In this document: piece after piece, positions 37,183 through 44,045 of the stretch
Position numbering within the stretch: the stretch's first letter is position 1
Layout of the letters: every line of letters begins with the position of its first letter
IMG/VR virus record: IMGVR_UViG_3300032038_000024
Location: 37,689 to 101,688 of that record
Origin: a virus
Taxonomy: Duplodnaviria > Heunggongvirae > Uroviricota > Caudoviricetes
DNA: 64,000 nucleotides
Strand: one strand, 5' to 3'
The notes under the pieces: model-generated
Database searches by the model: none
What the model was told of the DNA's origin: nothing
The model's input: only the letters and a program-made list of their open reading frames with translations
Made by a program: the position numbers and the translations under genes

Positions 37183-37689
37183 TTAATATCTATTTGTAAC
37201 TATTATTGTGTCTTTATTATTCTTGAATTTTTCTTTTACTTTATCAAGACCTAATTGCATATCATCAATAACTTTTTCAGGTATATGTTCTTTACGACGA
37301 TCTTTACAAATTTCTTTAGGAGTATCAATAATGATTATTTGAACATTAGCATTAGCTTTCTTTAATTTATCATAATAATTTTGTACTCTTCCTGCTTTAA
37401 TATTTGTATTATCAATAACAAAATCTCTTCTATCTTTAATTGCTTTATCAATTCGTTCTAAACAAATTCTTGTAACTTCCTTTTCTTGTTCTGAATTACC
37501 AATTGCTTTATGGTTGTCATCCTTCATTATACCAAGTTCAACTCTAATTGAATCTTGGTTTATAATTTCGATATTCTTTGGAAGTTCTTCTTTAATATAT
37601 GTTGACTTACCTGAACCTGGAAGCCCGCACATAATCCAAACATTAAATGGATTTTGTTTTTCAAATATATAAGCTATTAATGATTTCAT
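37183..37689 (-). CDS. polynucleotide 5'-kinase (T4 Pnk kinase-domain homolog), with the shared N-terminal motif
   Basis: CGLPGSGKST (T4 GCPGSGKST), INQDSIR (INRDDYR), IDNTNIKAGR (SDTNLNPERR). N-terminus MKSLIAYIFE. Confidence 0.6.
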   Translation of the reverse strand: MKSLIAYIFEKQNPFNVWIMCGLPGSGKSTYIKEELPKNIEIINQDSIRVELGIMKDDNHKAIGNSEQEKEVTRICLERIDKAIKDRRDFVIDNTNIKAGRVQNYYDKLKKANANVQIIIIDTPKEICKDRRKEHIPEKVIDDMQLGLDKVKEKFKNNKDTIIVTNRY

Positions 37690-38891
37690 TTTTCTAATTC
37701 AAATCTTGTTCCTAAAGCTTGATTCATTGGTGCAAAAGATCCAGTCATTTTAAGACGACGTCCTTTATACATAATTACAATACCTTCTGCTGCATTATAT
37801 TTATCACCAAGAGCTTTAAGTCTATTTAATGATTTTTCTAATGTTGCCTTTGCTTTAACTGAATCTGATTTTTCAACTTCTTCAACAGTTGCTTCTAAAT
37901 CTGCTTTAAGAGATTTAATAATTGAATCTTTTGCACCTGAATTAACAAAGCCATCTAATAAATCAATTAATTCATTTCCAATTGCTAAGAAAAGATTATC
38001 CATAGGTTCCATAATCTTACCTACAACTTCTTTTCTTAAATCTTTATCAAGTAATGCAATTTCATCTTTATGTTCAGGATAACGTTTTTTCAATTCTGTT
38101 GCTTTAACTGATTTGTCATCATTACACATTCTATTGAATATGTCGTCATCATCTTTACACCAATCAGGAGCAAATTTCTTATATCTTACTTTTTTCCATT
38201 CTTCAATTGAAACATCAGGTTTTAAACCTTCATCTTCCCAAAGCTTAGATATTGCTTTTGTAAACTTTTCAGCAAATTTAATACCTTCTTCTGCTGATTT
38301 AATTACAAGATTAGGACGTGGCTTTGCAGCATCAATACCTTCTGCTGCTTTATATATATCATCAACATGTCCTTCAACATCTTCAACTTCTTTATATTTA
38401 CCATCAACTAATTCATATATTTTATAACCATGAAATGCTACTCTATCTGTTGCATAAGGCATAACATTTGTTTTACCAGCAATAATACATTCACAATTAA
38501 TTAATTTACGATGAGTTGAATCTGGATTAAAGAAATCTTTACCAAGTTTATTGAATATCTTAGTAATGATTTCGCCTGATTGTACGAATACTTTTTTCTG
38601 ATGCTCACGTTCACCCCATTTTTCTACCATGTCATCAATAGACATACCACCTTTTTCTGAATTTAAATTACCAATATTACGAACAAACACAACTTCTCCT
38701 TTGTCGTTCATTGTAGCCATAATATTAAATCCATCAAGTTTTTCTTTAAGGTTTTCAATTTTACCTTTGAATAATGAATCCACCAAATCAATTAAATCAT
38801 TGGCAGTGAAATCTGTATAATCAAATGGATGTGCCATGTGGCCTGCTTGACCACCTTCAAAAAGCATTATATATCTTTGTAAATCTAACAT
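37686..38891 (-). CDS. ATP-dependent RNA ligase (Rnl1-like)
   Basis: Nucleotidyltransferase motif I EKLDGFN (KxDG); helical C-terminal domain; adjacent to the Pnk kinase gene. Confidence 0.55.
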   Translation of the reverse strand: MLDLQRYIMLFEGGQAGHMAHPFDYTDFTANDLIDLVDSLFKGKIENLKEKLDGFNIMATMNDKGEVVFVRNIGNLNSEKGGMSIDDMVEKWGEREHQKKVFVQSGEIITKIFNKLGKDFFNPDSTHRKLINCECIIAGKTNVMPYATDRVAFHGYKIYELVDGKYKEVEDVEGHVDDIYKAAEGIDAAKPRPNLVIKSAEEGIKFAEKFTKAISKLWEDEGLKPDVSIEEWKKVRYKKFAPDWCKDDDDIFNRMCNDDKSVKATELKKRYPEHKDEIALLDKDLRKEVVGKIMEPMDNLFLAIGNELIDLLDGFVNSGAKDSIIKSLKADLEATVEEVEKSDSVKAKATLEKSLNRLKALGDKYNAAEGIVIMYKGRRLKMTGSFAPMNQALGTRFELEK

Positions 38892-38893
38892 AA

Positions 38894-39352
38894 TTAACTA
38901 ATTCTTGATTTAATTTCTGATAATTTAGTTTTTGGTGGAAAAGTTATTTTTGCTTTTTCTAATCTTTCATCAGTATGTTCGCTATATGTCTTTCCTTTAT
39001 TTAAATAATCGCTAAGTGTGTCTGCATCATTCATTAAGTCTCCATCATAAGGTTCTTCTTCTTTTGAAATACCATGTCCATTACCTCTACCTCCACCTAT
39101 AATAGTATTCAAATAAAATTTTTGTGCTGATGCATGACCTTGGTCATACCCTAATGTATACCAAGCGTAATTTCTAAATACAACGATATCTTTAGACTTA
39201 TCGTCAGGATAACATACTAATGAATATTTCATTTTAGGATCTAACCTATGAGCCCATCGGTCTTTAATTTTTATCCACCCAAAAGACCAACCTTTACAAT
39301 CAGAAAAAACAATTTTTTTACTTTCTGTTATATATTCATTAATATTCTTCAT
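38894..39352 (-). CDS. hypothetical protein with the shared N-terminal motif (MKNINEYITE)
   Basis: 152 aa. Confidence 0.45.
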   Translation of the reverse strand: MKNINEYITESKKIVFSDCKGWSFGWIKIKDRWAHRLDPKMKYSLVCYPDDKSKDIVVFRNYAWYTLGYDQGHASAQKFYLNTIIGGGRGNGHGISKEEEPYDGDLMNDADTLSDYLNKGKTYSEHTDERLEKAKITFPPKTKLSEIKSRIS

Positions 39353-42919: not shown

Positions 42920-43383
42920 TATTTATTTTCTTTCTTTTTATCTTCTTTAATTGGAATTGCAGGTATAGGAACAATATTCAATGCAGGAACATTTACTTGT
43001 ACACCCTTTATATCTTCCATATTCTTTGGTGGATTTGATTCCCCAAAATTTTCTTTATAATATTTATCTAAATCAATACTATCTTTTGAAATATATGGGA
43101 TTGGAACAATTGTTAAAAGAGGTACTTTAAGCTGTGCTGTCTTTCCATTAGCATCAGTAAATTTTATTTTACCATCAGATTCAACAATGTTTGGATGATC
43201 AAACTTAGGATATTCTTTAATTAAATCTTCAAGAAAATCTTTAGTAAATACTCCAGGTAATTGTTCTAATTTTTGAACATGATCATTCATTAATTCATCA
43301 ACAGTCATATCTGTTGCATCAACTACTCTTACAGTGTTTGGTAATATAAACTTACCAATTTTTTCTCTAAGTTTATTAAACAT
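42919..43383 (-). CDS. hypothetical protein
   Basis: 154 aa. Confidence 0.4.
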   Translation of the reverse strand: MFNKLREKIGKFILPNTVRVVDATDMTVDELMNDHVQKLEQLPGVFTKDFLEDLIKEYPKFDHPNIVESDGKIKFTDANGKTAQLKVPLLTIVPIPYISKDSIDLDKYYKENFGESNPPKNMEDIKGVQVNVPALNIVPIPAIPIKEDKKKENK

Positions 43384-43400
43384 ATTTAATTTAAATTTAT

Positions 43401-44045
43401 TTATTCATCCCAAGCTTTGATTACTTTAAGATTTTTTATATTCAAGTCACGAGCAGCAATTACATTCTTTTTATCATCATCAACAAATACCACTCTATCA
43501 TATTCTTTACAAAGTTTTCTAAGAACATTTGCTTTCTTTTCAGCATCATCCTTCCCAGGATAACTTCTTATATCATCATTAACTGCATGTGAAAATGTTT
43601 TCTTAAATGAATCTCCTAATTCTTTAAGAGCACCATCTTTATCTCTAAATTTTAAGAAATCTGTAATTGCCTTTTTAACTGTATCTTCACAAGAACGAGC
43701 AGTCAAAAAACAAAAATCATACCCAGCTTGAATATAGTCATCCATTATTTTCAAGTTCTTAATTAATGGTGTACCAGAAATAATAGAATTATATACTTTA
43801 ACTGGATTTCTAAAATCTCTATAATCAAACCATGATCTCTTATCTGGGTCTCCTGCATCAGGATCTTTTGCAAATTCATCAGTAGATAATGCTACTTCTT
43901 GTTTCCCAGGTTCTTTCTTATAAACTGATATTTGTGATGGATCTACTTTTAATATTGTATCATCAATATCAAATACAATTAATCCTTTAACAGAATTAGG
44001 AAGATCCTTTATCTTTTCATTTATATATACAATTAAAGATTTCAT
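43401..44045 (-). CDS. HAD-family phosphatase (Pnk 3'-phosphatase-domain-like), with the shared N-terminal motif
   Basis: HAD motif I VFDIDDTIL (T4 Pnk FDVDGTL), motif II FCFLTARS, motif IV VVFVDDDKKN. N-terminus MKSLIVYINE. Confidence 0.6.
   Translation of the reverse strand: MKSLIVYINEKIKDLPNSVKGLIVFDIDDTILKVDPSQISVYKKEPGKQEVALSTDEFAKDPDAGDPDKRSWFDYRDFRNPVKVYNSIISGTPLIKNLKIMDDYIQAGYDFCFLTARSCEDTVKKAITDFLKFRDKDGALKELGDSFKKTFSHAVNDDIRSYPGKDDAEKKANVLRKLCKEYDRVVFVDDDKKNVIAARDLNIKNLKVIKAWDE

Follow-up and report, generated by a model that had tools for sequence, protein, structure and literature searches.

A candidate capsid-cargo island carrying putative nucleic-acid end-repair enzymes in a large uncultured myovirus with a T4-type head

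RNA repair by a polynucleotide kinase (Pnk) and a ligase, and the targeting of proteins to the capsid, are each textbook biology of phage T4. In the first system, the bifunctional kinase-phosphatase Pnkp acts with the ligase Rnl1 to counter PrrC. In the second, the internal proteins (IPI, IPII, IPIII) and the protein Alt carry a capsid targeting sequence (CTS), MKTYQEFIAE, and are cut by the protease gp21. To our knowledge, the T4 genes pseT and rnlA encode no CTS and their products are not virion components. Here we describe a stretch of 64,000 nucleotides from a tailed phage (the window; positions 37,689 to 101,688 of IMG/VR record IMGVR_UViG_3300032038_000024), in which a block of genes at 36.7-44.2 kb shares features with both systems. 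We give an even chance to the reading that this block is a capsid-cargo island holding a nucleic-acid end-repair set, in a large uncultured myovirus with a T4-type head. The genes that matter most for this reading are the following.

37183..37689, minus strand: stand-alone polynucleotide 5'-kinase-like P-loop kinase, 168 amino acids (AAA_33, phrog_505, PDB 4gp7/4xrp; key residues K28/S29, D46, R49, T95)
37686..38891, minus strand: RNA-ligase-like covalent nucleotidyltransferase, 401 amino acids (motifs I K51-L-D-G, Ia R71, III E134, IIIa F153-H-G-Y, IV E369-G370, V K381)
40980..41768, minus strand: NMNAT-like HIGH-superfamily adenylyltransferase, 262 amino acids (motifs GRFQPFTQGH and SGTDVR), the conserved partner of the ligase family
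43401..44045, minus strand: stand-alone HAD phosphatase, 214 amino acids, DUF2608/AphA-like (D26-I-D-D-T30, T115, K171, D189-D190)
16172..17860, minus strand: T4 gp21-type (S77) prohead protease (PF03420, E 1.3e-11; phrog_207, E 2.3e-44)
14297..16066, minus strand: T4 gp23-type major capsid protein (PF07068, E 1e-27)

The block resembles the T4 repair pair in encoding a P-loop Pnk-type kinase, a DxDxT phosphatase and a probable lysine-AMP RNA-ligase-type enzyme. Unlike in T4, separate genes encode the kinase and phosphatase, no specific relation links the phosphatase to its T4 counterpart, the ligase belongs to a different, PF09414-related subfamily with an inserted helical block and has an NMNAT-like partner, and all four enzymes bear a short peptide tag and sit among late structural genes. 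This tag, about ten residues of the form M-K-x-hydrophobic-x-x-aromatic-I-x-E, recalls the CTS proteins of T4 in that it is found on unrelated proteins whose genes form a variable set, in a phage with an S77 protease and a gp23-type capsid protein. Unlike in T4, the putative cargo consists mostly of nucleic-acid or nucleotide enzymes and many ORFans gathered in one island, C-termini and fusion junctions can bear the tag too, and about seven W-[IV]-x-E repeats are present in the protease.

Parts of other described systems can also be recognized. The closest solved relatives of the kinase are the kinase domains of Clostridium thermocellum Pnkp (CthPnkp; 4gp7) and of Pnkp1 (4xrp), a likeness to the bacterial Pnkp/Hen1 and Pnkp1-Rnl-Hen1 systems. 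Fungal Trl1, with its ligase, kinase and cyclic phosphodiesterase domains (LIG-KIN-CPD), provides the top folds for the ligase through its LIG and LIG-KIN structures, and its domain order is mirrored by the gene order from ligase to kinase. Unlike these systems, the window has no Hen1, metallophosphoesterase or credible 2H cyclic phosphodiesterase (CPDase), its enzymes are separate proteins, and the architecture of its ligase differs. The adenylyltransferase shares the GRFQPF(H/T)xGH and SxTxxR motifs of archaeal/NadM-type NMNATs and phage NAD+ salvage genes, and has the MJ0541 NMNAT as its top PDB match; unlike them, it is coupled by fusion or adjacency to an RNA-ligase-type domain rather than to a Nudix domain or nicotinamide-riboside kinase, and its scores lie below the cutoffs of Pfam and TIGRFAM. 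Finally, polyvalent proteins are injected with phage DNA, according to the passage of PMC7824862 that cites Iyer et al. (2017). The multi-enzyme cargo proposed here would likewise go in with the DNA, and relatives of the ligase also stand at the C-terminus of multi-domain proteins of 800-1700 amino acids; unlike polyvalent proteins, the cargo of this phage is encoded mostly as separate tagged genes and not as one giant polypeptide.

The window is AT-rich (about 22-38% GC per 2-kb window, mostly below 30%) and encodes the head and tail of a myovirus: a gp23-type capsid protein, an S77/gp21-type prohead protease, a long tail sheath and a neck protein. A DNA search of 50,697 deposited phage genomes returned no nucleotide-level relative of the region. 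Metagenomic contigs that reach about 470 kb carry near-identical copies of its genes, which points to a huge uncultured phage. A description of the jumbo gut phage 'Jug' (PMC12880540) mentions none of these genes.

The evidence for a cargo island begins with the tag itself. Eleven of the 71 genes in the window start with M-x-x-[ILFV]-x-x-[YF]-[ILFVS]-x(1-2)-E, a number that far exceeds the expected mean of 0.06 and maximum of 2 obtained from 2000 composition-preserving shuffles of each protein (pattern M..[ILFV]..[YF][ILFVS].{1,2}E). Nine of these genes form the block at 36706..44242, which is co-oriented with the structural genes and embedded among them, and the other two lie at 29467..29970 and 55430..55843. 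The consensus of 56 distinct tags from the window and its close relatives is M-K(84%)-S-L/I-x-x-Y/F-I-x-E-[S/K]-L, with conservation at position 4 (hydrophobic), position 7 (aromatic), position 8 (I or L) and position 10 (E). These coincide with the functional positions of the T4 CTS, in which residues 4 and 7 are important for targeting, and residues 8 and 10 for processing by gp21 (PMC9026906). Synonymous variation in the tag codons, together with a lack of conservation in the DNA upstream, argues that the peptide is the target of selection. Each of the four enzymes has a tag, as follows.

37660..37689, minus strand: N-terminal tag of the kinase, MKSLIAYIFE
44016..44045, minus strand: N-terminal tag of the HAD phosphatase, MKSLIVYINE, kept in all close orthologues
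38856..38891, minus strand: shortened tag of the ligase, MLDLQRYIMLFE, ending L-F-E directly before the conserved GG-x-x-GHMAHP
41001..41024, minus strand: tag-like DLKTYITE near the C-terminus of the adenylyltransferase

An earlier note on this DNA had recognized the decapeptide on the kinase and the HAD phosphatase and had likened it to a capsid-targeting sequence, and both observations stand. It had also described the ligase as lacking the peptide and had suggested that the end-healing enzymes, and not the ligase, may be delivered. This second proposal is not supported, because the ligase of the window has a shortened tag, its orthologues have the full one (they start MKSLLEYIHEAL, MKSLVQYICESL, MISLKDYILEHL or MKSIIQYIRECL), and the partner adenylyltransferase is tagged as well. 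Residues L4, Y7 and E12 of the ligase tag are invariant in the family, GG follows MLDLQRYIMLFE directly, and the start of the ligase domain always reads [LIM]-x-E-G-G-x-x-G-H-M-x-H-P. The HIGH motif of the adenylyltransferase is found at about residue 10, too near the N-terminus for a propeptide to fit before it, and the tag is C-terminal. The protein of the window ends ..NDLKTYITENHDISK*, relatives end ..KMISLKEYITESIIKQ* or ..KRISLKEFIIESLNI*, and in other relatives the tag links the protein to an additional domain or to the ligase itself (..ESHMSLRDYVFEHLINK..).

The association extends beyond the window. About one third of the island genes in relatives are tagged, with much turnover among them. 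In distant phages with T4-like portals, single-domain ligases start MKIYNNFEQFITE, MKHIKLFEEWL or MKKLLTYQQFLVE, and neighbouring genes start similarly. The ligase family of these phages sits next to terminase, portal and prohead-protease genes.

Cutting of the tags would presumably fall to the S77 prohead protease. The C-terminal half of this protein (16598..16849) contains about seven tandem repeats of 12 amino acids, W-[IV]-x-E-E-F-A-P-E-[VI]-Q-N (TRF period 36), preceded by an acidic, Lys/Pro-rich linker of low complexity. The repeats have an aromatic-[IV]-x-E core like that of the cargo tag, and might serve as repeated sites of self-cleavage or of cargo docking. The N-terminus of the protease, MTDKRCLVYE, has V8 and E10 in register with the processing positions of the tag; it recalls the LIE-9 site near the N-terminus of T4 gp21 (PMC9026906).

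A decapeptide of this kind might have nothing to do with capsid loading. It could be another N-terminal module, with a part in assembly, localisation or stability, or a relic of cassette shuffling, in which case the enzymes would be produced and act inside the cell late in infection as ordinary repair or metabolic enzymes of the phage. The tagged proteins are not basic like the internal proteins of T4, and small ORFans with a high turnover make up many of the tagged genes, a pattern that fits cassette exchange. This explanation is nevertheless unlikely, although it fares better than the other alternatives considered below. It does not sit well with conservation at the level of the peptide despite synonymous codons and unconserved upstream DNA, with the match between positions 4, 7, 8 and 10 and the functional positions of the CTS, with the presence of the corresponding S77 protease and gp23-type capsid genes, or with retention of the tag at C-termini and fusion junctions where the N-terminus is not free.

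On its sequence, the kinase is accepted into the polynucleotide 5'-kinase family. Its open reading frame (ORF) contains the motifs CGLPGSGKST, INQDSIR and IDNTNIKAGR that had been compared with T4 Pnk, and the comparison holds in BLASTP, where the P-loop, D-x-x-R and D-T-N elements are aligned (25% identity over 112 amino acids, pairwise E 6e-5; the T4 Pnk sequence used is 100% identical to X03007.1). The protein matches AAA_33 (E 7.6e-21; 75 bits against a cutoff of 27) and the N-terminal half only of phrog_505 (E 1.6e-21), a PHROG of bifunctional phage polynucleotide kinases with 295 positions. The P-loop GxxGxGK[ST] is present as G22-LPGSG-K28-S29. Residues K28/S29, D46, R49 and T95 align with Lys21/Ser22, Asp38, Arg41 and Thr80 of the CthPnkp kinase domain (CthPnk), in which the P-loop Lys, Asp38 and Arg41 are essential, Asp38 being the general base and Arg41 the anchor of the acceptor, and Thr80 holds the first phosphodiester (PMC3902929). 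The T4 Pnk equivalents of the last three are Asp35, Arg38 and Thr86 (PMC3902929), with which the residues of the window kinase thus align as well. A tblastn search of phage records gave 79 matches, and the annotated ones among the matches listed are almost always named 'polynucleotide kinase'. The bifunctional architecture of T4 Pnkp is absent: the kinase ORF stops at 168 amino acids, and the HAD phosphatase is encoded 5.7 kb away by an ORF of its own. The RNA-repair repertoires of jumbo phages are already known to include polynucleotide kinases and HADs that stand alone (PMC7824862).

The ligase-like protein, which contains the KEKLDG motif, overlaps the kinase gene by 4 nucleotides as previously described, its stop codon and the kinase start codon sharing ATGA (37686..37689). 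In related locus L001, whose ligase is 98% identical, a tagged ORFan of 239 amino acids (MKNINKYISE; L001 11218..11937) stands between ligase and kinase, and the overlapping arrangement is therefore not fixed within the species-level group.

No match to the ligase was found by sequence or profile in Pfam, PHROG, NCBIfam or PDB, and for this reason it is placed only through its predicted structure and a scan of distant relatives. The family is large, with 513 close clusters, 1,359 clusters at 50% identity (768 of them at E<=1e-10) and 445 IMG/VR loci. Residues K51 and D53 (KxDG), R71, E134, Y146, H154, E369-G370, K381 and T383-G384-F386 are invariant in relatives down to 23% identity, and G13-G14, G17 and H18 are nearly so. 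Thus, the full set of lysine-AMP ligase motifs I, Ia, III, IIIa, IV and V is kept, of which I, III, IIIa, IV and V are common to all ligases and not diagnostic of Rnl1. When 43 family members were scanned singly, 22 matched Pfam RNA_ligase PF09414 (best E 1.5e-7), and the Rnl1 family PF09511 was matched neither by the window ligase nor by any of the 43.

In an AF2 model (pLDDT 82), a helical block of about 160 amino acids (residues ~200-360) lies between motif IIIa (FHGY 153-156) and motifs IV and V (EG 369-370, K381). Motifs IV and V are at the extreme C-terminus, with just one helix after motif V, and the model contains no OB domain. The fold matches of the ligase scored as follows.

Trl1 ligase domain (6n0t): 7.6
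T4 Rnl2: 7.4
Trl1 LIG-KIN: 7.4
Naegleria Rnl: 7.2
REL1: 6.8
archaeal Rnl3: 6.5
T4 Rnl1: 6.2
DNA ligases: 6.2 or less

From these data the protein is predicted to be an RNA-ligase-type nucleotidyltransferase of a divergent, PF09414-related branch. Accordingly, the part of the earlier note that made the third gene a KxDG RNA-ligase-type enzyme is upheld, as is its lack of an OB domain, the feature by which a DNA ligase might have been recognized. Its likeness to Rnl1 does not hold given the lack of a PF09511 match and the different fold rank and topology, and what had been called a helical C-terminal domain is modelled as an insertion that precedes motifs IV and V. The family is essentially unannotated, with the label 'cytidylyltransferase-like' where there is any; one isolate, Microcystis phage Mel-JY01, carries a member that is annotated 'cytidylyltransferase like protein'. 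A conserved His/Asp-rich element at the N-terminus of the family has no counterpart that we identified in known RNA ligases, and the L-x-E just before GG (window 38850..38858) is shaped like a T4-type prohead-protease site.

The same enzymes could instead act on DNA, with a co-injected kinase, phosphatase and ligase that clean and seal the incoming genome or breaks inflicted by the host, in the manner of PNKP and its ligase. Pnk-family kinases and DxDxT phosphatases act on both DNA and RNA (T4 Pnkp; PMC3592404). Packaged proteins would travel with the DNA, distant phages have the ligase family beside terminase, portal and prohead-protease genes (Microcystis phage Mel-JY01 included), and DNA ligases are also among the fold matches. 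We regard a DNA substrate as rather unlikely because the ligase is modelled without the OB domain that ATP-dependent DNA ligases have, and because its Pfam relation is to RNA_ligase PF09414.

The ORF of the HAD phosphatase, which contains VFDIDDT, is a separate gene as the earlier note had stated, and its DxDxT nucleophile and HAD motifs II-IV are present. It matches PF00702 (E 1.3e-6; 29.4 bits against a cutoff of 26.4), PF11019 (DUF2608; E 9e-5) and phrog_415 (E 5.8e-9), and one matching PHROG is named 'polynucleotide kinase'. A tblastn search of 50,697 phage records found no match, even though Pnk homologues are encoded by at least 1,250 of them. Among PDB entries, the sequence search returned no Pnk chain and only weak matches to AphA, a class B acid phosphatase with FDIDDT, and the profile search was empty. 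Alignment with T4 Pnk by hhalign covered motif IV alone, with a probability of 57%. Thus, the DIDDT motif likened to that of T4 is indeed present, but by sequence the protein has no detectable specific relation to the phosphatase of T4 Pnkp. Phosphatases of this HAD type are fused directly 5' of the ligase domain in two related loci of distant phages, L060 and L059; one fusion is a HAD-ligase protein and one has adenylyltransferase, HAD and ligase domains, and both show 31% identity to the window HAD and keep its motifs.

Comparison of related loci reveals which of these genes belong together. Many ligase relatives are 600-1700 amino acids long and include a HIGH-superfamily domain (cytidylyltransferase-like, PF01467). 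Partners were counted for 86 ligase-family ORFs in 85 loci, with these results.

HIGH-type adenylyltransferase: fused in 64, within 1 kb in 8, within 5 kb in 9, absent in 5
HAD of the window type: fused in 2, within 5 kb in 3, within 10 kb in 2, absent in 79
Pnk-like kinase: within 1 kb in 5, absent in 81

The adenylyltransferase is therefore fused to the ligase or within 5 kb of it in 81 of 86 cases, and some of the five loci without it are truncated contigs. These counts suggest that the conserved unit is adenylyltransferase plus ligase, which a HAD phosphatase has joined at least twice and of which the kinase is a recent neighbour. In consequence, the kinase and ligase, which had been read as a module, receive little comparative support as one, their adjacency being confined to near-identical relatives.

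Several variants of the pairing were seen in distant phages. In L082, L068, L079, L081, L084 and L085, a single-domain ligase is followed by a protein of about 615 amino acids that has an N-terminal part of ~400 amino acids and the HIGH adenylyltransferase as its C-terminal third, and L082 (8039..15280) has two such pairs in tandem. A second ligase domain in the 615-amino-acid neighbour was suspected and not confirmed. In another family representative, P0140 (593 amino acids), an N-terminal UPF0227 (YqiA-like esterase) domain stands where the adenylyltransferase usually does.

The closest PDB relative of the adenylyltransferase is the M. jannaschii NMNAT 1f9a (MJ0541; E 0.0037), in which both GRFQPF-T/H-xGH and SGTxxR are aligned. 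The protein also matches TIGR01527 (E 1.5e-5; 24.6 bits against a cutoff of 181), PF01467 (E 7.6e-4; 20.1 bits against a cutoff of 21) and phrog_395. Because the scores fall below curated cutoffs, 'NMNAT-like' is the most that can be said. As a speculation, the enzyme might supply or rebuild NAD+, or it might let the ligase take AMP from NAD+ (NAD+ + PPi <-> ATP + NMN).

This partner raises the question of whether the set serves polynucleotides at all. It could be a nucleotide or NAD+ supply set that counters host defences based on NAD+ or nucleotide depletion, in which NAD+ or a related dinucleotide comes from the NMNAT-like enzyme, the kinase phosphorylates a nucleoside such as nicotinamide riboside, mononucleotides are the substrate of the HAD and a nucleoside diphosphate kinase (NDK) balances NTPs, while the ligase either consumes or produces a small molecule in adenylylated form or is a ligase coupled to NAD+. 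In its favour are the NMNAT-like partner, fused or nearby in 81 of 86 cases and with a bona fide NMNAT as its top PDB match, the weak matches of the HAD to AphA and DUF2608, the tagged NDK and a dNMP kinase nearby, and the fusions of HIGH-type nucleotidyltransferases to P-loop kinases or Nudix domains that jumbo phages encode for NAD+ salvage (PMC7824862). We consider this quite improbable, since the kinase has the D-x-x-R pair and the Thr of D-x-T-N and finds its top matches in Pnk families and not in NadR-type AAA_28, every polynucleotide-ligase motif is kept and the closest folds are RNA ligases, and a kinase and nucleotidase working on one mononucleotide would be futile.

Least probable of all is the explanation from which the earlier note set out, a T4-type Pnk split into two genes that acts with an Rnl1-type ligase as T4 tRNA repair does against PrrC-type nucleases: the kinase domain of T4 Pnk and the N-terminal half of the 295-position PHROG do align with the kinase, and the HAD has DxDxT and matches a PHROG named for polynucleotide kinase, yet the HAD lacks specific similarity to the T4 Pnkp phosphatase (no tblastn match, motif IV only in hhalign), the closest solved relatives of the kinase are bacterial Pnkp kinases, Pfam, fold rank and topology all separate the ligase from Rnl1, and kinase and ligase are linked in near-identical genomes alone.

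Under the favoured reading, a capsid-cargo island with an end-repair set, the tagged proteins would be made late, as is proposed because the island is co-oriented with the structural genes and embedded in them. By analogy with the T4 CTS, the tag would dock unrelated proteins onto the prohead scaffolding core, the S77 prohead protease would trim it after Glu, and the mature enzymes would be ejected together with the DNA. In the host, the kinase would phosphorylate 5'-OH ends, the HAD would take off 3'-phosphates, and the ligase would self-adenylylate on K51 and then seal. The likeliest task would be to heal and reseal ends prior to any phage protein synthesis, with tRNA or other RNA cut by host nucleases as the substrate. 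Delivery as protein would be sensible if host defences that cut tRNA or RNA act before the phage translates its own repair genes.

Several points weigh against this reading. The tag of the window ligase is degenerate, and the tagged proteins, unlike the T4 internal proteins, are not basic. The HAD is as close to nucleotidase-type class B acid phosphatases (AphA, FDIDDT) as to Pnk phosphatases, and the tagged NDK and the NMNAT-like gene equally suggest nucleotide or NAD metabolism; indeed, we know of no role for an NMNAT-like enzyme in the classical heal-and-seal pathway. The five ORFs of 86 in which the kinase adjoins the ligase all come from near-identical relatives, the kinase is absent within 10 kb of ligases that are 68%, 60% and 47% identical, and in the 462-kb phage LR756500 the kinase and ligase homologues are 243 kb apart. 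Finally, tRNA genes, RtcB, Hen1 and Tpt1 were not seen in the window.

More tentatively, a wider proposal can be made. The RNA-ligase-type family, with its helical insertion before motifs IV and V and its EGG-x-x-GHMxHP element, may be a widespread capsid-delivered cargo of T4-type heads that is obligatorily coupled to an NMNAT-like partner. In this gut-type huge phage it would have been joined by a tagged Pnk-like kinase and a HAD to give a complete, pre-made healing and sealing kit that is active before phage gene expression. Our literature search for virion-packaged RNA-repair enzymes found nothing relevant, and no report that combines phage RNA repair with capsid targeting. Neither the ligase subfamily nor the near-obligatory link with an NMNAT-like domain appears to have been described in the literature covered, which excludes the RNA-repair survey of Burroughs and Aravind (2016), where the family may be named.

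If repair enzymes are indeed loaded into capsids and injected, then phages could counter defences that cut tRNA or RNA without prior translation, adding a new layer to this arms race. Such delivery would be a way out of the catch-22 in which the translation apparatus to be repaired is one that the host has already put out of action. The range of cargo known for T4-type heads, so far Alt and a few internal proteins, would also grow to include whole sets of enzymes. The Rosetta-stone link between adenylyltransferase and ligase hints at a chemistry that joins NAD+ or adenylate metabolism with strand sealing, and with the tag as a simple sequence rule, virion cargo can be predicted in huge phages that have not been cultured.

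The remaining tagged genes, all on the minus strand, are listed here.

36706..37176: tagged protein, MKNIVTYINE
38894..39352: tagged protein, MKNINEYITE
39364..39684: tagged protein, MKSINEYINE
39681..39974: tagged protein, MKGIKQFISE
39977..40996: tagged protein of 339 amino acids, MISLNEYSQE, with a sub-threshold CPDase match alone
41771..42919: tagged protein of 382 amino acids between the HAD and adenylyltransferase genes, with E138...D155...E165-V-K167 invariant
44051..44242: tagged basic protein of 63 amino acids, MKDFSKYLTE
29467..29970: tagged ORFan of 167 amino acids, MQDIKNFILE, outside the island
55430..55843: tagged NDK, MISLKDYIINE, outside the island (PF00334, E 2.7e-21)

The 382-amino-acid protein has no Pfam or PDB match. 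Its invariant pattern, taken from an alignment of 17 homologues in a family of 131 proteins, resembles that of PD-(D/E)xK nucleases, and from this motif alone the protein may be a nuclease. A homologue is also found 3' of an adenylyltransferase-ligase fusion in related locus L010. Homologue searches with this protein and with the HAD gave lineage-restricted relatives and no informative fusions. The 339-amino-acid protein was considered as a 2H cyclic phosphodiesterase and rejected, given that its match (E 0.0028 over 48 residues) is under the cutoff, the typical H-x-T/S motifs are missing and no homologue was found in related loci.

No Shine-Dalgarno-like sequence is evident 5' of the genes inspected. 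Elsewhere in the window, the structural region contains two very large ORFs on the minus strand, at 19116..26006 (2296 amino acids) and 58053..63326 (1757 amino acids). Three small Cys-rich ORFs of 50-77 amino acids, at 2613..2846 and 6006..6194 on the plus strand and 55241..55393 on the minus strand, have a common CxxC...G..C-type pattern and may form a family of zinc-ribbon paralogues.

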